Below are positions 5,383-34,507 of a stretch of DNA of 64,000 nt, piece after piece. A program made the position numbers and the translations under genes. Within the stretch, counting starts at the first letter, position 1. The number at the start of each line of letters is the position of its first letter. The notes under the pieces were generated by a model, which made no database searches, was not told where the DNA came from, and saw nothing but the letters and a program-made list of their open reading frames with translations. This stretch comes from Escherichia phage sutha: the sequence record PV245934.1, one strand, 5' to 3'.

Positions 5383-7192
5383 GTTTTACTCGTTTTACCA
5401 TTTCTTTCATTTTACCTAAATTCCATGGAACAACGCTAGGAGTTCCAAGATATCCGCATGTTCTTCTTATTGTATTCATCTTTTTAGGATCAGTTTCTCC
5501 ACAAATAGAACAAACAAATCCGTTTTCAGTAGGAGTCATTTCATGGGTACTTCCACACGTAAAACATTTATCTACTGGCATATTAACACCAAAATAATCT
5601 AAATGTTGTGCAGCATAATCCCATACAGCCTCAAGACCTTTTAGGTTATTTTTCATATCAGGAAGTTCAACATAAGAAATGTGACCACCTGTCGCAATGA
5701 AATGATACGGTGCTTCGCGAGAAATCTTTTCAAACGGAGTAATATTTTCTTCTACTGAAACGTGGAAACTATTAGTGTACCAGCCTTTATCGGTAACATC
5801 TTTTACACTTCCATATTTTTCGGTATCAAGTTTACAGAAGCGATAACACAGGTTTTCAGCAGGAGTAGAATACAAGCTAAAAGCAAATCCGGTTCTTTCA
5901 GTCCACTGTTTAAGACGAGCATTCATTTTAGTCAAAATTTCTTGCCCAATATCACGACCGACAAGAATATTCAATTCGTGAATACCGATGTATCCCAGGG
6001 ATACTGAACTTCTACCGTTTTTAAATAACTCAATTATATCATCATCGGGTTTAAGACGAACCCCGAATGCACCTTCTTGGTAAAGAATAGGAGCAACAGT
6101 AGCTTTAACTCCTTTTAATGAACTAATTCTACACATCAATGCTTCAAAACATAAATCCATTCGCTCATTGAACAATTCGGCAAATTTCTGTTCATTGAAT
6201 TGTGTTCCAATATAAGAATCTAACGCAATGCGAGGAAGATTCAGTGTTACAACGCCAAGATTATTACGTCCATCAAGAATTTCATTACCAGTCGAATCTT
6301 TCCATACGCTCAAGAAACTACGGCAACCCATTGGAGAAACAGGAATAGATGAACCTGTGATAGCTTTATTGTTCTTAGCCGAAATGATGTCAGGATACAT
6401 TCTTTTGCTTGCGCATTCTAAAGCAAGCTGCTTAATATCATAGTTCGGATCGTCTTTATAAAGATTAACACCTTCTTCAACAAACATAACAAGTTTAGGG
6501 AAAATAGGAGTTATCCCATCACGACCAAGGCCTTTAATACGATTTTTCAGAATTGCTTTCTGAATCATTCGTTCAGTCCAGTCAGTTCCCGTACCAAATG
6601 TAATTGTTACAAAAGGCGTTTGTCCGTTTGAACTAAAGAGAGTATTTACTTCATATTCATAAGCTTGGAATGCATCGTATACATCTTTTTCTGTTTTAGA
6701 TTGGGCATAATTCAACGCATCAGCGATTTGCCATTTTTCTGCGTCCTCAATATGTTTTGCATAGGTGCGTTTAACATAAGGAGAAAGGACTTTATCTACA
6801 TTCGCAAAAGTCGTTCCACCGTATTGATGGGAAGCAACCTGTGCAGTAATTTGTGCCATAATTGCAGTAGCAACACCGATTGATTTAGGAGTTTCAATCT
6901 GTGCATTACCGAGCTTAAATCCGTTCTCAAGCATTCCTTTTAAATCTACTAAACAGCAATTAGTAAATGGAAGAGCAGGGGAATAATCAATATCATGGAA
7001 ATGAATAATTCCGCTTTCATGCGCTTTCATAATAAAAGACGGGACCATATTTTTGGCAATGTGTTTAGACACAATACCAGCCATAAGGTCCCGTTGAGTT
7101 GGAAAAACACGAGAATCTTTATTAGCATTCTCGTTTAAAAGGTCTTTATTAGTTTTATGAATCAATCCTTCAATTTCTTTTTCAATTGTCAT
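5375..7192 (-). CDS. nrdD: anaerobic ribonucleoside-triphosphate reductase
   Basis: 605 aa; C-terminal glycyl radical motif RRTCGYLG; N-terminus MTIEKEIEGLIHK as in T4 NrdD; continuous, no intron. Confidence 0.95.
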   Translation of the reverse strand: MTIEKEIEGLIHKTNKDLLNENANKDSRVFPTQRDLMAGIVSKHIAKNMVPSFIMKAHESGIIHFHDIDYSPALPFTNCCLVDLKGMLENGFKLGNAQIETPKSIGVATAIMAQITAQVASHQYGGTTFANVDKVLSPYVKRTYAKHIEDAEKWQIADALNYAQSKTEKDVYDAFQAYEYEVNTLFSSNGQTPFVTITFGTGTDWTERMIQKAILKNRIKGLGRDGITPIFPKLVMFVEEGVNLYKDDPNYDIKQLALECASKRMYPDIISAKNNKAITGSSIPVSPMGCRSFLSVWKDSTGNEILDGRNNLGVVTLNLPRIALDSYIGTQFNEQKFAELFNERMDLCFEALMCRISSLKGVKATVAPILYQEGAFGVRLKPDDDIIELFKNGRSSVSLGYIGIHELNILVGRDIGQEILTKMNARLKQWTERTGFAFSLYSTPAENLCYRFCKLDTEKYGSVKDVTDKGWYTNSFHVSVEENITPFEKISREAPYHFIATGGHISYVELPDMKNNLKGLEAVWDYAAQHLDYFGVNMPVDKCFTCGSTHEMTPTENGFVCSICGETDPKKMNTIRRTCGYLGTPSVVPWNLGKMKEMVKRVKHA

Positions 7193-7662
7193 TTTAAACT
7201 CTTTCTAAGCTGCTTCTTAAATGAAGTTATTAATTGTGTTTTGGTGTCAGATTCATTATATTCAAATCCTCTTTGAAGCATCTCAGCCATCATTTCCTCT
7301 TTTCCTAAACGAGAAAATTCCTTTGATTTATCTCCAACAAAGTTAGGGTGAATATTATTTTGGGTGTAATCGGATTTTAAATAAGTAAGTAAATTTTCTA
7401 ACCATTCAAGATAATCAACACCTTGCCCCTTTAAGCCAGAACGATTAAATTTATGTTTCATTTGACCTTCTGCAGCATTGCAGAGATTACATAGCAACCC
7501 ACGTACCTTTCCTGCTTTTGGTCCATTTAATTCATGGTCATGGTCAAGGTGATTAGCTTGAACATCAGGATTTAGTTCTCGTTGGCAAATTAAGCATTTA
7601 CCGCTTTGTGCATCATAAAATTTCTGTTTTTCTTCTTTGTATAATTTGCCAGTCAATAACAT
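7189..7662 (-). CDS. 49: endonuclease VII (Holliday junction resolvase)
   Basis: 157 aa MLLTGKLYKEEKQKFYDAQ...CLICQRELN... matches recalled T4 gp49. Confidence 0.9.
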   Translation of the reverse strand: MLLTGKLYKEEKQKFYDAQSGKCLICQRELNPDVQANHLDHDHELNGPKAGKVRGLLCNLCNAAEGQMKHKFNRSGLKGQGVDYLEWLENLLTYLKSDYTQNNIHPNFVGDKSKEFSRLGKEEMMAEMLQRGFEYNESDTKTQLITSFKKQLRKSLK

Positions 7663-7710
7663 AATAAACCCTTACCTTAAATAGATAAGGGTATTTATTA
7701 TTTTCAAGTA

Positions 7711-9261: not shown

Positions 9262-9504
9262 TTATTCCTTAATTCCTAGTACTTGTTTAAAAGTCTCGTC
9301 GTAATCAAGACTTTGACCTGTTTGTTCTTTATGTTTGTATATAATATCACTTACTTCTGATAGCATATTTTTATATGAACGAGTTAAAGCAGATTTAAGT
9401 ACGCTGTATCTATCAGGAAATTTACCGTGTTCATTATAATACGCTATTGCTAATTCACGGACTGCCTTTTCAGCAATCTCCATATATTCTTTACGCTTTG
9501 TCAT
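9262..9504 (-). CDS. hypothetical protein
   Basis: 80-aa ORF. Confidence 0.4.
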
Positions 9505-9809
9505 TTTTTTTCTCGGTTAAATCGGTGTTTGCAATGACGGCATTTATAACGAAGATTACTAGTCTGCCAATGAACTAATTGAACCTGTTCAGTACCGCAT
9601 TCAGGACAATTAGGAACGTTTTTAGAAGCCCTTTCGCGGCGTTCAACCATAGCCATAATGGCATCCCAAGCAGGAGGTTTAAAGTCTAGATCGTCACAAC
9701 CATGAATCTTTCCACGCATTTCTAAATCGTCTTCTTCACCAGCCATAATAATTTTAATTAGACTGGAATTACTTGAAGCTGCAATATCTTCTAATAGACG
9801 CTTTTTCAT
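9501..9809 (-). CDS. zinc-ribbon protein
   Basis: CPECG...CRHCKH paired CxxC motifs. Confidence 0.45.
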
Positions 9810-10717
9810 TTCAATACCTCAATAGCATTACGTAAACCATTTGCTTTTGCATTAAGAGCTTTTAACAATTTAGTGTGTTCGGCAATCTGAGCTTCAACTT
9901 CAACTAGTCGAGATTTGAGGTATTCACGTTCTTCACTCAGATTATCAACCTTTTCTGCTTTAGGTTCTTTTACAACTTGCTTATATGTATTAGGGTTCTT
10001 CAGTTTAATTAGAATGCGTGAACTGTATAACATTGAACCATTATCTTCGGTTTCATCATACATTTCCACCATCGTGCAGAGTTTATAAGACAACGAACGA
10101 ATAGTTTTGTTATGCTTATTAATTTCTCTAGCTGTCATGGTGCCGAGATTACGTGAGTAATAATAAGGAACCTGGATATTAATTAATACTGATGAACCAC
10201 CTGGCTTGTGTGTTACTTCATCAGCAATAACCCAATCCTTAACATGAACTGTATTTGTACGGTCATCGCCTGCGGTAAATAGTTTGCGAGCATGCTTAAA
10301 AAGCATATTCACTTGGTCATTGAATTGACAAGCAAATTTATCAGCAAATTTAGTTTCAGGAATGGTAGATAACCAATCAGCCAAATGGGTCTTTTTAACA
10401 TCGTTAACAATAGTAAATTCAACCAAATCAGTTATAGATGTCTCAGATTTAATAAAGCTCGGCTTCATAAAGTTTTTAATGTTATCACGAGCTATCACAG
10501 AAGATAGTAATCGGGAACGTTTGAACCACTCTAGCAAAGAACCAAGAGAATGTGAATACGCGTTTTGTGTATCTTTACAAATATGGTTTTCCCATCCAAT
10601 ATAGTCTAAAAAATCACGAAGAATATTATTGATTACTGCTCTGTGTCCTATCTGATAATTACGATGTTTAGTAATAAGACTATCAAAATAATCAATATAA
10701 TGTTTACGAGTTTTCAT
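9806..10717 (-). CDS. hypothetical protein, member 1 of tandem paralog family (C-terminal coiled coil)
   Basis: 303 aa; MKTRKHY N-terminus and C-terminal heptad-rich tail shared with the next three ORFs. Confidence 0.5.
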   Translation of the reverse strand: MKTRKHYIDYFDSLITKHRNYQIGHRAVINNILRDFLDYIGWENHICKDTQNAYSHSLGSLLEWFKRSRLLSSVIARDNIKNFMKPSFIKSETSITDLVEFTIVNDVKKTHLADWLSTIPETKFADKFACQFNDQVNMLFKHARKLFTAGDDRTNTVHVKDWVIADEVTHKPGGSSVLINIQVPYYYSRNLGTMTAREINKHNKTIRSLSYKLCTMVEMYDETEDNGSMLYSSRILIKLKNPNTYKQVVKEPKAEKVDNLSEEREYLKSRLVEVEAQIAEHTKLLKALNAKANGLRNAIEVLK

Positions 10718-10769
10718 GTTCTTCTCACTTGGTTAATGATTTATGCTCCGAACCATCCTTGGCTTTAAA

Positions 10770-11822
10770 TTACTTAATTAACTGTAAAGCTTGTTCCAAA
10801 CGATCAAGGCGATTAACAGATTCTTCCCAAATCCTTTTAGCCTTCTCATATTCTTTCTGCGCTTTATTAGAAATTTCTAGAACTTCTTTATAAGCTTTTT
10901 CTAGTGCAATAACTTCTGGACGAATTTCTATCGGTTCAGGCGAATCATCAAGATTATCCATTAGTTCCTCAAGTGTAGTTTCTTCTTTAGGAGTATTCAC
11001 AATTTCATCACATTTTTGTTGGTAAATTTCTTTATCAGTCGGTGAATAAGCACATTTCACTTCACGAAGACTAACTACAATTTTGTATCCTTCCCAACCA
11101 CACGTATTTTTAAAAGGATAAGTATGAATATTTTCTACCGTTTCCATACAAAGTAATGCAGTCTCTAATTGCCAAGTTATATCACTAGCAATTGAGAAAA
11201 ATTTATTAATGTTCTTTTGATTAGTTTCTGGTGTAAAAAATCTGTAATTAATAAAAATAGCTACTTTGTTTTTATCAAGCTCATATTCTTCTGCTATAAT
11301 CATATCATCAGCTAATGGATGAATTTGACGATAACCGCCATAGCATAATTTAGAAGCTGATTTTAGAATTTGCTTCGTAAAACTCCTAAATTCACTAACC
11401 CAACGACGAGTAAAAATATTCTCAGGGTCTTCTTTATTATTGAGATGATAAGAATTAACATCACCGAACCAATTATATCCTACTACATCTTTAGTTCGTT
11501 TAATTTCTTTCCCAAATTTACCAAGAATATCTCTGTTGACTAAGTATGAAAGAAGACGAGACCCTTTAAAGGTTTTCTTAATGTCATCTTTATCTGTACG
11601 ACTAGAAATTTCACGAACTTCATGAATAAATTTGCCAGAAGAAACAATGCTTACATCAATATTATTGAGCCATTGATTGATAATAGAAAGAACACTATTC
11701 TGACTAGACATAGGTTTAACTTTATCATCAATAACACTGTTGAATGATTTGATATATTCGTTACGAGTCATATTAATCTCCTCAGTAGAAAGTAAGAACA
11801 TTATACCACATCCTTGTGGCAA
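10770..11822 (-). CDS. hypothetical protein, paralog family member 2
   Basis: 350 aa; FxxQ(I)LKSASKL motif and C-terminal coiled coil shared with 11829..12857. Confidence 0.5.
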   Translation of the reverse strand: MPQGCGIMFLLSTEEINMTRNEYIKSFNSVIDDKVKPMSSQNSVLSIINQWLNNIDVSIVSSGKFIHEVREISSRTDKDDIKKTFKGSRLLSYLVNRDILGKFGKEIKRTKDVVGYNWFGDVNSYHLNNKEDPENIFTRRWVSEFRSFTKQILKSASKLCYGGYRQIHPLADDMIIAEEYELDKNKVAIFINYRFFTPETNQKNINKFFSIASDITWQLETALLCMETVENIHTYPFKNTCGWEGYKIVVSLREVKCAYSPTDKEIYQQKCDEIVNTPKEETTLEELMDNLDDSPEPIEIRPEVIALEKAYKEVLEISNKAQKEYEKAKRIWEESVNRLDRLEQALQLIK

Positions 11823-11829
11823 AGTAAAC
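11801..11829 (-). promoter_or_regulatory. early promoter
   Basis: GTTTAC -35 with GTATAA -10-like hexamer. Confidence 0.4.
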
Positions 11830-12857
11830 TAGTTCAGTGCATTTAGTGCATTGTTCAGTTTAGAACGTTGCTTCGTAAGATTTTTGACTTTTTCTTGAGC
11901 TTTTTCTAGTATCTTTTCAGCTTCTAGCACTTCATTAGTTGCTTTAACGAGTTCATCATCTACTGCCTTGATAGACTTCTCAATCGCATCCGCGTGCCAT
12001 TTTTCAACAGGTTTAAGACTCGGATTTTCAACAGGAAGAAAATTCACTTTATTGAATTTCCATGCATCATTATTACCTGAACTATACATCCAAAATTTAG
12101 GATCGTTTGATGAGTAATTGGATAAATTTAAATTTAAGTTATCTTGCACTTCTTGCTTTTTCTCTTGCGGGACTTCGTCCTTTCTCAAAAAATCGTATTT
12201 AAATGAAACGATCATATCAAGTTCATACGTTGTTGTGTCTAATTTAAATCGTTCAAAACGAGGTAAAATCTTAGATTGAACAGCAGCAACAACATCCATA
12301 TACTTAAATGCTTCTGTCAACTGCGATTTAAGGCATTCGCAAATTGAAAGAGAATTTTTTGTATTAGGTTTAAAGCTAATTCGTGCAGTTCTATTATTTT
12401 CTTTTAATGGTCTTACTTCCATCTGAAGAGTATAACCATCAAATTTCAGATTCTTTAAGTTAATATCAGAACCTTTTAACCGACTCGCAGTTGATAAAAT
12501 TTGCTTTAATTGTCTACGGAACAGAGCAATAAATCTCCATTCAATACGATAATGATTTGGATTGAAAAATCCAGATGATAAATCGACCTTACTTTGACCA
12601 ACGCCTTGAACAAATAGAGGATTTTTATAATCAATAGTTTTACAGAAATCGGTGAGCTGCTCACGGGCCGTCATTTGTGTAATATACCCTGCTTTACTAA
12701 AATTACGCACCCATTCACTGCTATTCGTATACTTAAAGTGATGAATAACACGATTAACTTTATCAGGGTCTAAATTATTTTCACACAAAAATGTCATAGC
12801 ATCACGAGTATAGCTGGCATTACGAACCATATCTTCAATTTGAGAACGAGTTTTCAT
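11829..12857 (-). CDS. hypothetical protein, paralog family member 3
   Basis: 342 aa; MKTRSQIEDMVRNAS..., RRQLKQILSTASRL, C-terminal coiled coil. Confidence 0.5.
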   Translation of the reverse strand: MKTRSQIEDMVRNASYTRDAMTFLCENNLDPDKVNRVIHHFKYTNSSEWVRNFSKAGYITQMTAREQLTDFCKTIDYKNPLFVQGVGQSKVDLSSGFFNPNHYRIEWRFIALFRRQLKQILSTASRLKGSDINLKNLKFDGYTLQMEVRPLKENNRTARISFKPNTKNSLSICECLKSQLTEAFKYMDVVAAVQSKILPRFERFKLDTTTYELDMIVSFKYDFLRKDEVPQEKKQEVQDNLNLNLSNYSSNDPKFWMYSSGNNDAWKFNKVNFLPVENPSLKPVEKWHADAIEKSIKAVDDELVKATNEVLEAEKILEKAQEKVKNLTKQRSKLNNALNALN

Positions 12858-12865
12858 GGTATTCC

Positions 12866-13774
12866 TTAAGATTTAAGTAAATCAACAATTTTAATTAACT
12901 TTTCACGCTCAGATTTAGCTTTACTACTCAGTCCAGATAGTCTGAAAATTTCATCATCATATTGTTGAATAGAAATATTCAGCTCTTCAATCTGCTTATT
13001 AAAATAATCAATTTGTTCAGAATGTTTTTCGTTACTACGAACTGGTACAGGTTTTGCAGGCAATGTAGTTGAACTGGATTCATCCGGGCGATAAATTAAA
13101 ATACAACTTGAACCAATAGGGCATTTTGCACCAGATGAATATTCTAATGTTCCAGCTTCTTTTAAAACTTCAAAAGCTAAACAGAGATGATGCCCCATAT
13201 TAACATAATCTGTAGAGTGAGCTCTGATGTAATAATCATCTCCACGAGTACTAAATTTAAAGCATTTAAGGTCTTCTGTATTATTGGTCTTAAAAATCAT
13301 TTGTTTATCTAGACCTTTAGCTAATCGAGCACCTAATGCTAATAATCGTCGTTGATTTTCCCACAAATCTGCGATCATTTGGTCAAATGATAATTTCGGC
13401 ATTAGTCGACCATAAAGGTCATATCCTTTATTATAATTGCGAAGGATTTCACTCGCATTAATACGAGACAACGCTCCAATTTTATTAAGGGCTTTCATAA
13501 TGCGATTAGATAAAAGCATTCCAGACCCGTTTGTTCGTTGTAAATGTTTTTCTAATCCAAATCCAATATCAACTTTAAACTTATCTAAAATTTCGGCGTG
13601 AACATCTTTATCAATAACATTTAAATTTAGTACTGGGTTAAATTTATGAAAAAATTTATCTGACTCGTCGTGTTGAAGTACAGTCCATTCATTTGATTTT
13701 TTATTAACTAAAGATTTAATTACTGCATTGACATTATTAATTGCTACTGACATATTTTCCTCACTCAATTTCAA
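12866..13774 (-). CDS. hypothetical protein, paralog family member 4
   Basis: 302 aa; NQRRLLALGARLAKG motif and C-terminal coiled coil. Confidence 0.45.
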   Translation of the reverse strand: MKLSEENMSVAINNVNAVIKSLVNKKSNEWTVLQHDESDKFFHKFNPVLNLNVIDKDVHAEILDKFKVDIGFGLEKHLQRTNGSGMLLSNRIMKALNKIGALSRINASEILRNYNKGYDLYGRLMPKLSFDQMIADLWENQRRLLALGARLAKGLDKQMIFKTNNTEDLKCFKFSTRGDDYYIRAHSTDYVNMGHHLCLAFEVLKEAGTLEYSSGAKCPIGSSCILIYRPDESSSTTLPAKPVPVRSNEKHSEQIDYFNKQIEELNISIQQYDDEIFRLSGLSSKAKSEREKLIKIVDLLKS

Positions 13775-14223: not shown

Positions 14224-14751
14224 TTATGCGAGTACCGTCTTTAACCGTTCTTCAAACTTCCGAAGAGTATTTTGGCGTTCAGCTCTTTGCTTTTTGTAAG
14301 TTTCAATACGCTCTGAAATGAGAGTGTATCGTTCATTTACTGATTCTTTCATAAAATCAGGAATTTCACGAGAAGCTTTAATCTCATCAAATTTATCAAT
14401 AACAGCTTGCTCTTCAGCAATTAAGTTATCATACATCAAAATATCTTTCTTGATGAACTCAATATCTTCTTGAGTTACACGAGATAATTTAGATGCTTTA
14501 TCCTTTTTGTACTGTTCGTTAGTATCACGAGACCAGTGTAATGTACGATTTTTATTCGTATTCTTGTAAATTTCTACAATACCAATCTCATCAATAATAA
14601 CGATCCAATTCCAACGGGATTTGTAAATTTGTCCTCCATCAACAGTGATTTCACCTCCGATTGAGATGTCATTAAAGAACTTGCTTTGTGCTTCAGATTT
14701 AAATTTACCATCGTTGTAATTTACCAAGTTGAAAATATCTTTAGCGTTCAT
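14224..14751 (-). CDS. hypothetical protein
   Basis: 175-aa ORF downstream of an early promoter. Confidence 0.45.
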   Translation of the reverse strand: MNAKDIFNLVNYNDGKFKSEAQSKFFNDISIGGEITVDGGQIYKSRWNWIVIIDEIGIVEIYKNTNKNRTLHWSRDTNEQYKKDKASKLSRVTQEDIEFIKKDILMYDNLIAEEQAVIDKFDEIKASREIPDFMKESVNERYTLISERIETYKKQRAERQNTLRKFEERLKTVLA

Positions 14752-14779
14752 TTTCTGTTCCTCCGTAGTTGATAGTTGT

Positions 14780-14809
14780 ATAGTACCACAGAGGAACAGT
14801 CTTGTAAAC
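14780..14809 (-). promoter_or_regulatory. early promoter
   Basis: GTTTAC, 18 nt, TACTAT inside conserved block gatagttgtatagtacca. Confidence 0.5.
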
Positions 14810-14811
14810 CA

Positions 14812-15126
14812 CTAAAAGAAACTTCTTTCACAATTTTTTCCACTGAACCAAGCGCTCACTGCTTTCTTAGTCTCAGGAGCAGTGTTATCCATAAACCATT
14901 CAAAGGCAGCCTTTTTATGATTCTGGAGGGCTTCTCGGGCTTTAATCTGCTCACGGTCTATTAACACTAACATATGAGCCTTTCTTGTCACCAGGGGCTT
15001 CTTATGATTTTTTGAATATTCCCAATCATTTGTCCATCGCATCGTTGTTGCGAACTGAAATACTGCTTCTTTAATTTTAGTTTCGTAAATTTCACGAGCC
15101 TTTGAGTATAACATCATTACCTCCAT
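14812..15126 (-). CDS. hypothetical protein
   Basis: 104-aa ORF. Confidence 0.4.
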   Translation of the reverse strand: MEVMMLYSKAREIYETKIKEAVFQFATTMRWTNDWEYSKNHKKPLVTRKAHMLVLIDREQIKAREALQNHKKAAFEWFMDNTAPETKKAVSAWFSGKNCERSFF

Positions 15127-15216
15127 TTACCAGTTTAATTCTAGTCATCTTTTTAACGGCAGTCCATATAATCTATTTCTGAACTGCCTTTTTGTCTTAG
15201 AAGGCCTCTTATGAAT

Positions 15217-16185
15217 TTATTTCAGAAGAGTAACCTCAGCGATTTCTTGCCAACCGTTTTTGTCGGTCATAATAAAGTCAGCAAGATACAGAGCAGTACG
15301 CAGTGAAACATTGCGTAAACGATTAACATTGACTTTCATCCATGATAATGCTTTATAAGTTTCTTCATCAGAAAGACCGCGCTTTTGCATCATGTCGGTT
15401 GAAAGAATAACATCTTCAACCCTGACCATAATTTCTTCATTAGTGTGAACACCCAAATCCAAATAAACTGAGCGGGACACTAATGCTTGTAAATGTGGAG
15501 CAAGTTTAGTACCACGGTCTAATTCGCGGTCAATGTCAACGTTTGTGATAAAAACAATCGTTCCTTTAAATTCAAACTCACGCTCAATGCCTTTTTCTTC
15601 TAAGTAAGAAGATGCGGTGCTCCAGCAGACTTTACGGGTCTCTCCAGTGTCCAGAGCAGCTTTCAGAAGATTAAGAATGTCCATATCAGAGAAAACATCC
15701 ACATCATCAATCAAAAGGACAGAATTCTCTTCACGATTATTCCAAAGCTGTTCATAAAGACCGATACCAGAGATTTTACCATTAATGCTTTTATATTCAA
15801 TGTATCCATTATCATTTGCTTTATTCAAAGCTTTATCTAAAGAATACGTTTTACCAATACCCGCCGCACCAGAGATAATCAATGAACGAATATTTCCGTT
15901 AATAATACCATTCGTCATCATTCCCATAACATTAAATCTTTTATTAATGCGGGTTTTCATATCTTCATATGATTCTTTAACTTCTTCAACTTTTACACCA
16001 TCATATGAAATATCTGATTTGTAAACCCAAACACCGCGACGTTTACCGTCAATTTCAACAAAAACTTTACCATCTCCTTGTGCATCTACCGGAGCATTAT
16101 CTGGGAACCATTCGCCTAAGAGCTCAAAAGTTCCAGAGATTTCTTTACCGAAGTAGATACCCTTATTGATAGTTACAGTTTTCAT
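15217..16185 (-). CDS. AAA+/P-loop ATPase
   Basis: Walker A GAAGIGKT and Walker B-like LLIDDVD; track start is TTG, ATG at MKTV preferred. Confidence 0.55.
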   Translation of the reverse strand: MKTVTINKGIYFGKEISGTFELLGEWFPDNAPVDAQGDGKVFVEIDGKRRGVWVYKSDISYDGVKVEEVKESYEDMKTRINKRFNVMGMMTNGIINGNIRSLIISGAAGIGKTYSLDKALNKANDNGYIEYKSINGKISGIGLYEQLWNNREENSVLLIDDVDVFSDMDILNLLKAALDTGETRKVCWSTASSYLEEKGIEREFEFKGTIVFITNVDIDRELDRGTKLAPHLQALVSRSVYLDLGVHTNEEIMVRVEDVILSTDMMQKRGLSDEETYKALSWMKVNVNRLRNVSLRTALYLADFIMTDKNGWQEIAEVTLLK

Positions 16186-16254: not shown

Positions 16255-16518
16255 TTATTTTAATGTTTGCCAAATTTTTACTGCTTCGCGACGAGATACT
16301 TCTACGGCGCCAAGTTCTATAGCTTTTTGGCGTCGCCGAGCGTGTAAGTCATAATGTTTAATGCGTTTATCTTGAAACCAAGAACGTTTCATTCCTATTG
16401 CTTCTGCCATTTCGTGAAGCTCTTCAATATCTCCATCAGTGAACATATGACAATTTTTAGTTGGATGACCGCGAAGTTTCCATCCATGATTCATTAAAAC
16501 ATCTACGTAAACTGTCAT
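16255..16518 (-). CDS. hypothetical protein
   Basis: 87-aa basic protein. Confidence 0.45.
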   Translation of the reverse strand: MTVYVDVLMNHGWKLRGHPTKNCHMFTDGDIEELHEMAEAIGMKRSWFQDKRIKHYDLHARRRQKAIELGAVEVSRREAVKIWQTLK

Positions 16519-33554: not shown

Positions 33555-33631
33555 TGGCCAGGGTGAAAGGATTCTAACCTTTAACCTGCGGTTTAGAGGA
33601 CCGCTACTCTATACAATTGAGTTACACCCCG
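33555..33631 (-). tRNA. tRNA-Arg (anticodon UCU)
   Basis: Manual cloverleaf: acceptor CGGGGTG/CACCCTG, T-arm AAAGG-TTAGAAT-CCTTT, anticodon loop CCUCUAA, encoded CCA. Confidence 0.75.
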
Positions 33632-33757
33632 TAATTAGTTCACAGCAATACCTACTCCAACAATCAAGATGTCTTCACACGAAATTAAGAGAAGAGTGAT
33701 CAGTTCAACCCCTATAACCGCGTCAAGTAGATATTAATGTGACAATTGTCACAAATT

Positions 33758-33832
33758 TGGCGGACGTGATAGGATTCGAACCTATAACCAATCGCTTAAC
33801 AGGCGATCGCTCTGCCATTGAGCTACACATCC
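33758..33832 (-). tRNA. tRNA-Asn (anticodon GUU)
   Basis: Clean cloverleaf: D-arm GCTC-AATGGCA-GAGC, anticodon arm ATCGC-CUGUUAA-GCGAT, T-arm ATAGG-TTCGAAT-CCTAT, encoded CCA. Confidence 0.75.
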
Positions 33833-33836
33833 AAAT

Positions 33837-33923
33837 TGGTGGGGAGTGGTGGAGTCGAACCACCCGAGTCGCAATGACAATGGATTTACAGTCCACACCG
33901 CTACCTCTACGGGATAACTCCCC
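33837..33923 (-). tRNA. tRNA-Tyr (anticodon GUA), long variable arm
   Basis: 87 nt; anticodon loop CUGUAAA; T-arm GTGG-TTCGACT-CCAC; acceptor GGGGAGT/ACTCCCC; encoded CCA. Confidence 0.7.
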
Positions 33924-33932
33924 TAATTAATT

Positions 33933-34009
33933 TGGTGACCCAGACCAGATTTGAACTGATAACCTTTCCCTTATGAGGGGACTGCTGCTAACCATTGAGC
34001 TACAGGGCC
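33933..34009 (-). tRNA. tRNA with CAU anticodon (Met or Ile2)
   Basis: Anticodon loop CUCAUAA; T-arm ATCAG-TTCAAAT-CTGGT; imperfect acceptor and D stems; encoded CCA. Confidence 0.6.
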
Positions 34010-34010
34010 T

Positions 34011-34086
34011 TGGTGCTGATTGACGGAATCGAACCGCCGACGTCCTCATTACAAGTGAGGTGCTCTACCTACTGAGCTAAATCAGC
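34011..34086 (-). tRNA. tRNA-Thr (anticodon UGU)
   Basis: Acceptor GCTGATT/AATCAGC, D-arm GCTC-AGTAGGTA-GAGC, anticodon loop CUUGUAA, T-arm GGCGG-TTCGATT-CCGTC, CCA. Confidence 0.8.
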
Positions 34087-34091
34087 AAAAC

Positions 34092-34181
34092 TGGCGGAGG
34101 CGATAGGATTTGAACCTATGAGTCGCCGGAGCGACTGCCGGTTTTCAAGACCGGTGCATTAAACCACTCTGCCACGCCTCC
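34092..34181 (-). tRNA. tRNA-Ser (anticodon UGA), long variable arm
   Basis: 90 nt; anticodon arm CCGGT-CUUGAAA-ACCGG; T-arm ATAGG-TTCAAAT-CCTAT; CCA. Confidence 0.8.
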
Positions 34182-34183
34182 AG

Positions 34184-34257
34184 TCTCCGCGGCAGGATTT
34201 GAACCTGCGACATTCTGCTCCCAAAGCAGACGCTCTACCAAACTGAGCTACACGGAG
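34184..34257 (-). tRNA. tRNA-Pro (anticodon UGG)
   Basis: Anticodon arm TCTGC-UUUGGGA-GCAGA; T-arm GCAGG-TTCAAAT-CCTGC; CCA not encoded. Confidence 0.8.
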
Positions 34258-34267
34258 TAAATTAAAT

Positions 34268-34341
<74 letters not shown>

Positions 34342-34346
34342 AAATT

Positions 34347-34433
34347 TGGTGCGAGAAGTGGGACTCGAACCCACAAGGAAATCATTCCGCAGCATTTTAA
34401 GTGCTGTGCCTTTACCAATTTGACCATTCTCGC
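34347..34433 (-). tRNA. tRNA-Leu (anticodon UAA), long variable arm
   Basis: 87 nt; anticodon arm CAGCA-CUUAAAA-TGCTG; T-arm GTGGG-TTCGAGT-CCCAC; CCA. Confidence 0.8.
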
Positions 34434-34434
34434 G

Positions 34435-34507
34435 CTGGGAATAAAGGACTCGAACCTTTGCATCTAGCAGTCAAAGTGCTATGCCTTACCAACTTGGCTA
34501 ATTCCCA
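34435..34507 (-). tRNA. tRNA-Gln (anticodon UUG)
   Basis: Acceptor TGGGAAT/ATTCCCA, anticodon arm TAGCA-CUUUGAC-TGCTA, T-arm AAAGG-TTCGAGT-CCTTT; CCA not encoded. Confidence 0.8.

Follow-up and report, generated by a model that had tools for sequence, protein, structure and literature searches.

The tandem nrdC.3 to nrdC.6 genes of T4-like phages form one diverged, Straboviridae-specific family with a probable role in counter-defence

A stretch of 64,000 nucleotides (nt) from Escherichia phage sutha (sequence record PV245934.1), referred to here as the window, was analysed and found to be a Tequatrovirus (T4-like) genome; positions given without a locus name are those of the window. Four successive long genes near nrdC were identified, from sequence identity and synteny, as the orthologues of phage T4 nrdC.3, nrdC.4, nrdC.5 and nrdC.6, and these are ancient tandem duplicates of a single gene that is specific to the Straboviridae. 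T4 NrdC.5 overcomes Dsr1, a SIR2-domain defence protein of E. coli ECOR17. The explanation that best accounts for the findings as a whole, to which we assign a probability of about 0.6, is that the four genes encode accessory proteins that oligomerise through a coiled coil and carry heads that neutralise host immune proteins.

The DNA in a 5.1-kb stretch around the four-gene array is ~95% identical to that of many Tequatrovirus genomes, and the gene order is as in T4 (endonuclease VII, pin, nrdC, nrdC.1, nrdC.2, the four long genes, then nrdC.7 to nrdC.11). The initial annotation, made from the sequence alone, had described four consecutive minus-strand open reading frames (ORFs) of 303, 350, 342 and 302 amino acids (aa), and all four were recovered (9806-10717, 10770-11822, 11829-12857 and 12866-13774). 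The sizes of the first and third stand, but the second and fourth, as first given, begin at upstream TTG codons and are over-extended, the products being 333 and 295 aa, respectively. The start of nrdC.4 was assigned to the ATG at 11771 because of the T4 annotation, homologue alignments and a GAGGAG ribosome-binding site 7 nt upstream, and that of nrdC.6 to the ATG at 13753 because of the T4 annotation and alignment with homologues, all of which begin MS.AIN. With the N-termini corrected to MTRNEY... (nrdC.4) and MSVAINN... (nrdC.6), the MKTR start that had been attributed to all four proteins is present literally in nrdC.3 and nrdC.5 only; nrdC.4 has a related start and nrdC.6 does not have the motif.

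All four proteins are laid out alike: the N-terminal segment is helical and variable, the α/β core that follows is conserved, and a disordered linker leads to a C-terminal coiled coil of ~40–60 residues whose ending is conserved. AlphaFold2 (AF2) models were made for two of the four proteins, nrdC.5 (mean predicted local distance difference test score, pLDDT, 67.5; 80-93 in the core; residues 224-284 disordered) and nrdC.6 (mean pLDDT 77.6), and in both the same elements follow in the same order, namely a block-1 helix, two motif helices, a β-β-α-β-β arrangement, the disordered linker and a long C-terminal helix. An internal helix block that had been noted previously was found in all four proteins (FNDQVNMLFKHARKL, FRSFTKQILKSASKL, FRRQLKQILSTASRL and WENQRRLLALGARL), and a further block that had been overlooked is also common to all four (LSSVIARDNIKNF, LSYLVNRDILGKF, ITQMTAREQLTDF and LSRINASEILRNY). 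The heptad-rich C-terminal tails described earlier were likewise found in all four by a heptad scan, and the AF2 models of nrdC.5 and nrdC.6 have long helices there. The shared blocks comprise a (K)TR(K/N)EY-like N-terminal start (not in nrdC.6), LSxxxAR(D/E)xLxNF, FxxQxxxΦLxxAxRLxxG, a (K/E)PΦ motif at the start of the tail and a positionally fixed ending, LxxAΦxxLK. When the ending was searched for with a loose pattern, 14 of 18 family members matched, compared with 2 of 223 decoys. A regular expression for the motif helix was poorly designed, matching 5 of 18 family members, and was not used as evidence.

Among Tequatrovirus alleles, residues 61-180 of nrdC.5 and 81-160 of nrdC.6 are almost invariant (entropy 0.00-0.10 over the former in 51 alleles, and 0.02-0.05 over the latter), and variation falls in the first 20-60 residues and, further on, in the distal half of the head and in the linker. 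The nrdC.6 product of T4 itself (locus L001, coordinates 12067-12894; 275 aa) departs from all homologues after about residue 258, where it is apparently frameshifted, and the reference phage may carry a crippled copy.

The relationship between nrdC.3 and nrdC.4 was detected directly (BLASTP E=2e-6 over 182 residues; hhalign probability 96.9%), and that between nrdC.4 and nrdC.5 was borderline in hhalign (47%, E=2e-4) and collinear across 158 columns. The paralogs are less than ~25% identical to one another. In more distant Straboviridae the same slot, directly upstream of nrdC.2/nrdC, is occupied by one gene only (315-340 aa), and the products of these single-copy genes bridge the paralogs. 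Klebsiella phage F48 gp57 matches the nrdC.5, nrdC.4 and nrdC.3 hidden Markov models (HMMs) at 4e-15, 2e-7 and 6e-4, respectively, and aligns to nrdC.4 over the full length, and Enterobacter phage ZX14 orf142 matches the nrdC.5, nrdC.6 and nrdC.4 HMMs at 2e-11, 2e-9 and 7e-4. A chain of BLASTP matches connects the distant members, from F48-like proteins to ZX14 (4e-15) and from ZX14-like proteins to nrdC.6 (4e-9 to 7e-9), and one further homologue (P0213) matched the globular part of nrdC.5 (4e-5). Pairwise and profile alignment, which the initial annotation had proposed as a check, therefore linked nrdC.3 to nrdC.4 directly, but nrdC.5 and nrdC.6 only through bridging homologues.

Leave-one-family-out HMMs were built after the last 65 residues had been cut from every sequence, because coiled coils yield spurious matches, and were searched against the family together with a decoy set of 347 ORFs taken from all the loci retrieved. 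When the bridging homologues were included in these tail-less profiles, the left-out nrdC.5 was recovered at E=2.8e-5, nrdC.6 at 1.8e-8 to 1.9e-4, and nrdC.3 and nrdC.4 at 1.7e-9 to 2.8e-5, and the best decoys had E=0.02-0.7. A single superfamily HMM matched every candidate and none of the 347 decoys at E<=10. The secondary structures assigned by DSSP to the nrdC.5 and nrdC.6 models agree at 66% of 190 pre-tail columns of a sequence-based alignment, compared with 38±8% (maximum 56%) for circularly shifted controls. In a neighbour-joining bootstrap tree each paralog clade had 100% support, nrdC.3 and nrdC.4 paired at 68%, and nrdC.6 was sister to the single-copy genes of the ZX14/PM2 type at 78%; the deep nodes are tentative because their support is only 64-78%. 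Profiles with bridging homologues, the BLASTP chain, secondary structure and the tree together uphold the earlier description of the genes as tandem, strongly diverged paralogs, for all four.

Two further genes were considered for membership. The helical C-terminus of nrdC.8 (175 aa) had made it a possible fifth member, which was rejected as there was no match to the superfamily HMM at E<=10. The p0124 gene of Acinetobacter phage ZZ1 (locus L014, coordinates 14620-15780; 386 aa) occupies the same slot just upstream of nrdC and encodes a helical C-terminus ending ...ALSILRR. Its product scored E=0.019-0.46 in the leave-one-out tests, in one of which it was the best 'decoy' (0.019); it may be a still more distant relative, its membership being unproven.

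Family databases divide the four genes. The nrdC.5 ORF matches Pfam DUF7235 (PF23882) over its full length with 421.5 bits (gathering threshold 30 bits), and nrdC.3, nrdC.4 and nrdC.6 had no PF23882 match at E<=1. The Pfam copy searched with the four ORFs, which does not include PF26899, matched nrdC.5 only, and all homologues of nrdC.6 carry PF26899 in a precomputed family table, where the families assigned to relatives differ (PF23882, PF26897 and PF26899). PHROGs places the four genes in three separate families, with nrdC.3 and nrdC.4 both in phrog_1435, which nrdC.5 and nrdC.6 do not match.

Searching 1.84 billion representative proteins with the superfamily profile gave 36 matches at E<=1e-3, nearly all of them 280-348 aa long or fragments of such proteins. 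All named matches were from Straboviridae and belonged to Tequatro-, Mosig-, Dhaka- and Gaprivervirus, Klebsiella Marfavirus, Escherichia phage EcS1 and Pectobacterium phage PM2, the PM2 protein being found independently by a fold search with the nrdC.6 model. An exact-word homologue search and a scan of viral contigs with nrdC.5 returned close relatives only. A survey of related phages, as had been proposed, showed that copy number varies from one to four. Four intact copies are present in the window and in T4, three in Dhakavirus Bp7, Gaprivervirus VR7 and NHEP11, two in Mosigvirus p000v and Salmonella phage Manna, and one in Moon, F48 and ZX14 as well as in Tequatrovirus ACG-C40, which retains nrdC.6 only. 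In a phage collection the region was found in 743 records, with nrdC.6 in 741, nrdC.3 in 653, nrdC.5 in 581 and nrdC.4 in 553. The four-gene array was therefore confirmed to be a variable accessory region. In one Tequatrovirus genome (locus L005, IMGVR_UViG_2974742932_000001, ~11030-12140), nrdC.3, nrdC.5 and nrdC.6 are present with no intact nrdC.4 ORF of at least 230 aa between them, and its nrdC.4 may be a pseudogene.

Recombination between paralogs, in which heads and tails are swapped, is evident. In the protein P0056, residues 146-274 of nrdC.5 are fused to residues 129-303 of nrdC.3 with the junction at the motif helix, and gp094 of Salmonella phage Manna consists of an nrdC.6 head fused in frame to an nrdC.4 tail. 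The deletion in ACG-C40 extends from codon 69 of nrdC.5 through to the tail of nrdC.3. The nrdC.6 protein of Shigella phage Sf25 (P0090, 378 aa) has an internal tandem duplication of 83 residues (residues 176-258), which runs from the distal head across the linker into the first part of the tail. A 173-aa protein (P0089) encoded by a contig of 803 nt in ENA has an unrelated N-terminus of 120 residues (MEQRLDEWRRYFKDL...) followed by the last 53 residues of NrdC.5 (98% identity), and could have arisen either by shuffling of the tail onto another gene or as a chimera of the assembly. Whole nrdC.3 alleles are also exchanged within one genus: the window nrdC.3 shares 63% identity with that of T4 but 94-96% with other Tequatrovirus alleles, and 76% with the Mosigvirus allele.

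The initial annotation had further proposed that the array is under diversifying selection, which was not demonstrated. In a small sample consisting of the window and five Tequatrovirus genomes, the ratio of nonsynonymous to synonymous substitution rates (dN/dS, or ω; Nei-Gojobori method) was 0.35 for nrdC.3, 0.19 for nrdC.4, 0.17 for nrdC.5 and 0.20 for nrdC.6, compared with 0.02-0.10 in the flanking genes (nrdC, nrdC.1, nrdC.8-11 and endonuclease VII). The four genes evolve faster than their neighbours, and all of these values are below 1. Sliding windows of 30 codons gave ω of ~0-0.15 in the cores and 0.3-0.7 in the peripheries, with maxima of 0.92 and 0.70, the former from a segment with almost no substitutions (dN=0.011, dS=0.012). 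The variation reflects relaxed constraint on the peripheral segments, together with whole-allele swaps and recombination between paralogs.

The functional evidence comes from T4. A T4 clone with large compensatory deletions no longer infects E. coli ECOR17, and plasmid-borne NrdC.5 alone restores infection of a host with Dsr1 (Srikant et al., eLife 2022, PMC9391042). The phage with the evo 3 deletion may or may not have retained the paralogs during the rescue. The window NrdC.5 lies in the same genomic slot (order nrdC,.1 to.7) and is 96% identical to T4 NrdC.5, the phenotype being known for the T4 allele, from which the window allele differs at ~4% of residues. The earlier proposal of an anti-defence family thus holds for nrdC.5, which has a published phenotype against Dsr1, but for nrdC.3, nrdC.4 and nrdC.6 it is extrapolation. 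The latter are remote paralogs with the same architecture, but unlike NrdC.5 they do not match the DUF7235 model, and no anti-Dsr1 or other activity is known for them. In the searchable literature there is no paper on the function of nrdC.3, nrdC.4 or nrdC.6, and PMC9391042 is the only source of experimental information. The placement in an early region is in keeping with the description of nrdC.5 as an early gene (Srikant et al., PMC9391042) and with a promoter-like site that precedes nrdC.4; the number of such sites in the region is not above the shuffled expectation, and this one is a pattern match only.

As NrdC.5 disarms a bacterial immune protein, the other three paralogs are good candidates for the same kind of job. 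We propose that the four proteins are accessory, probably expressed early and oligomerising through the coiled coil, which would supply oligomerisation or avidity, and that host immune proteins are probably neutralised by direct binding to the globular heads. That NrdC.5 binds Dsr1 is the most economical reading, by which it would block Dsr1 ahead of nicotinamide adenine dinucleotide (NAD+) depletion as a non-enzymatic binder, by analogy with the phage inhibitor DSAD1. It is a further step, taken from family membership, accessory behaviour and neighbourhood, to suggest that nrdC.3, nrdC.4 and nrdC.6 represent the same scaffold retargeted to other defence proteins or to other Dsr1-like variants. 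A binding role is favoured by the searches of Pfam, PADLOC and the PDB, in which none of the four proteins matched a catalytic or enzyme family. The sole match to the PADLOC defence HMMs, between the nrdC.4 tail and BrxC (E=0.005, 12.8 bits), was weak and was discarded as a coiled-coil artefact, as were sequence-profile matches to PDB entries (Smc and a tape-measure protein, E ~0.06-0.08). Overall, nrdC.3 to nrdC.6 are a real but ordinary accessory gene family, probably with a counter-defence role.

Three known systems offer comparisons. DSAD1, from an SPbeta-like phage, blocks DSR2 by direct binding to the sensor (PMC10981675, PMC10973363, PMC11087589). NrdC.5 is a functional analogue, as both are phage proteins that counteract a defence-associated sirtuin NADase, and no sequence or fold similarity to DSAD1 was found for the nrdC.3 to nrdC.6 proteins. 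In T4, the genes dmd, tifA and adfA of the anti-toxin-antitoxin island, and ipIII, each counter a strain-specific host defence (PMC9391042). Like these genes, nrdC.3 to nrdC.6 are non-essential, clustered in accessory regions, easily deleted and variable among T4-like phages. To our knowledge, dmd, tifA, adfA and ipIII encode small proteins that are unrelated to one another, whereas nrdC.3 to nrdC.6 are tandem duplicates, up to four, of one fold, with a coiled-coil tail in common. Finally, the NARP1 and NARP2 pathways of phages reconstitute NAD+ and so counter NAD+-depleting defences, including DSR1 (bioRxiv 10.1101/2024.02.11.579819). NrdC.5 counters the same class of defence, but the NARP enzymes have recognisable catalytic domains and the nrdC.3 to nrdC.6 proteins match no enzyme family; the Pfam search detected none of the NAD+ reconstitution domains (Nampt, nicotinamide mononucleotide adenylyltransferase (NMNAT), ADP-ribose pyrophosphate synthetase and others) in the four ORFs.

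Genes that resemble the NAD+-salvage genes of NARP2 were seen in the syntenic nrdC.11-nrdC region of more distant T4-like phages, where they are annotated as NMNAT/Nudix, nicotinamide phosphoribosyltransferase and cytidyltransferase (Klebsiella phage phiKp_20, locus L015, coordinates 6099-7160; Aeromonas phage Aes012, locus L017, coordinates 12204-13676 and 6636-7694). Their location in the same neighbourhood as the Tequatrovirus anti-Dsr1 gene suggests an island themed on countering NAD+ depletion.

Several points weigh against the proposed role and against common descent. The phenotype is limited to nrdC.5, where direct and indirect action are both possible, and no defence system has been tied to nrdC.3, nrdC.4 or nrdC.6. 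That the tail mediates oligomerisation is a prediction from heptads and AF2 helices only, and T4 nrdC.6 does not have the coiled-coil tail. None of the 30-codon windows had dN/dS above 1. With regard to descent, nrdC.6 has no significant direct similarity to the other three in BLASTP or hhalign, profiles of 20 sequences for nrdC.5 and nrdC.6 aligned only at the internal helix motif (E=0.11), and when the nrdC.5 and nrdC.6 models were used to search BFVD with Foldseek, the hit lists did not overlap, each being made up of other Straboviridae proteins. The homology of nrdC.5 and nrdC.6 to nrdC.3 and nrdC.4 depends on intermediates.

The near-invariant Tequatrovirus core is explained by a conserved common partner no less well than by retargeting. 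All four paralogs might share one job or type of target, either variants of Dsr1 or of other SIR2 NADases or a host factor bound by the invariant core, with the array providing breadth or dosage against one class of defence. We regard this as rather unlikely. Only peripheral segments vary within Tequatrovirus, a single copy suffices in many genera, and the NAD+-salvage genes in the syntenic region elsewhere hint at a common NAD+-related theme, but identity between the paralogs is low and each persists as an orthologous lineage of its own in several genera, and such divergence exceeds what tuning to variants of one target usually needs. It is improbable that the four proteins are instead subunits of one hetero-oligomeric complex in which the related C-terminal coiled coils hold them together. 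The genes lie side by side on one strand, and the tails share the positionally fixed ending, but the copy number ranges from 1 to 4, the tail of T4 nrdC.6 has been lost, and nrdC.5 alone rescues the deletion phage when supplied on a plasmid, although that phage may have retained some of the neighbours. There is a similarly small chance that the family serves in host takeover or regulation, for example of transcription or nucleotide metabolism, and that the effect of nrdC.5 on Dsr1 is indirect, for example by preventing the trigger. That nrdC.5 and nrdC.6 are unrelated to nrdC.3 and nrdC.4, their likeness being due to coiled-coil composition and chance motifs, is very improbable and already largely refuted, as the non-significant direct comparisons (BLASTP E>0.6), the failure to recover these two with profiles made without bridging homologues and the separate PHROGs and Pfam assignments are outweighed by tail-less recovery well apart from the decoys once bridges are included, bridging proteins that align full-length beyond the tail, coinciding secondary-structure elements in the aligned columns and the same genomic slot in many genera.

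The reading as counter-defence proteins can be extended, though tentatively, to a modular platform. The core and tail would allow the proteins to oligomerise and to act in a common way, the variable surfaces of the heads would retarget each paralog to a different immune sensor, and recombination would renew head-tail combinations and copy number as host defences change. The Manna gene with an nrdC.6 head and an nrdC.4 tail and the nrdC.5::nrdC.3 fusion P0056 are possible examples. If this is true, T4 would hold three more uncharacterised immune inhibitors built on one scaffold, which has no confident match among solved structures. The earlier view of the array as diversified anti-defence paralogs is, taken as a whole, partly supported.

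Table 1. Genes, conserved segments and promoter-like site of the nrdC.3 to nrdC.6 array in the window
Feature	Position	Strand	Support
nrdC.3 orthologue, paralog A, 303 aa	9806..10717	-	ORF; T4 synteny/annotation; phrog_1435 E=3.8e-110
nrdC.3 core, ~aa 66-145, block 1 (at aa 71) and motif helix; approximate limits	10283..10522	-	superfamily alignments
nrdC.3 coiled-coil tail, aa 265-303, ends LRNAIEVLK	9809..9925	-	heptad scan; fixed ending pattern
nrdC.4 orthologue, paralog B, 333 aa	10770..11771	-	ribosome-binding site; T4 nrdC.4 is 333 aa; phrog_1435 E=6.6e-164
nrdC.4 core, ~aa 70-150; approximate limits	11322..11564	-	superfamily alignments; block 1 found
nrdC.4 coiled-coil tail, ~aa 283-333, ends LEQALQLIK	10773..10925	-	heptad scan; alignment
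Promoter-like site TTTACT-17 nt-TATAAT, extended TG	11800..11828	-	nrdC.5-nrdC.4 gap; consensus scan, 10/12 matches
nrdC.5 orthologue, paralog C, 342 aa	11829..12857	-	PF23882 (DUF7235); 96% identity to T4 NrdC.5
nrdC.5 core, ~aa 56-128: block 1 helix, β-hairpin, motif helices	12474..12692	-	alignments; AF2 helices 47-69, 105-115, 117-127
nrdC.5 coiled-coil tail, aa 286-342, ends LNNALNALN	11832..12002	-	single AF2 helix 286-341, pLDDT 80-91; heptad scan
nrdC.6 orthologue, paralog D, 295 aa	12866..13753	-	phrog_2257 E=2.5e-150; homologues start MS.AIN
nrdC.6 core, ~aa 91-146: block 1 helix and motif helices	13316..13483	-	alignments; AF2 helices 94-106, 123-132, 134-144
nrdC.6 helical tail, aa 241-295, ends LIKIVDLLKS	12869..13033	-	AF2 helices 241-271, 277-294; heptad scan

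Other features of the window were also recorded. The nrdC.2 ORF (9501-9809, minus strand) overlaps the stop codon of nrdC.3 by 4 nt, and its small product resembles a Zn ribbon (CPECG...CRHC), with weak matches to zinc-ribbon families in Pfam. The mosaicism of nrdC.2 equals that of nrdC.3, with identities of 67-90% between Tequatrovirus genomes and a dN/dS of 0.25. Between nrdC.10 and nrdC.11 lies an 87-aa DUF4031 ORF (16255-16518, minus strand; Pfam E=1.5e-21) at a position where T4 has no annotated gene, and ACG-C40 carries the same insert beside a ModB-like gene. The nrdC.10 product (15217-16185, minus strand) has weak matches to P-loop/STAND-like NTPases (AAA_16 and nSTAND3, E ~1e-4) that are below the Pfam thresholds. 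A cluster of ten Rfam tRNA matches was found at 33558-34507 (minus strand), the weakest with 30.3 bits against a threshold of 29. T4 has eight tRNAs and two small stable RNAs there, and one or two of the matches may be those RNAs.

The annotation of these genes in T4 and the nrdC.5 phenotype were already known. What appears to be new is that all four genes belong to one superfamily restricted to the Straboviridae, which PHROGs splits and Pfam assignments keep apart, that they have a common architecture of head, linker and coiled-coil tail, and that heads and tails have been shuffled between paralogs. T4 is the best-studied phage, yet nrdC.3, nrdC.4 and nrdC.6 have been without an assigned function, and their kinship with NrdC.5, the one factor known to counter the sirtuin defence Dsr1, makes these three anonymous genes candidate immune inhibitors that are cheaply testable. 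The map of conserved (core and tail) and variable (N-terminal segment, distal head and linker) parts can guide mutagenesis and structural work on the neutralisation of Dsr1, for which the natural chimeras are ready-made domain swaps. For therapy with T4-like phages, the presence or absence of nrdC.3 to nrdC.6 may help to predict host range.

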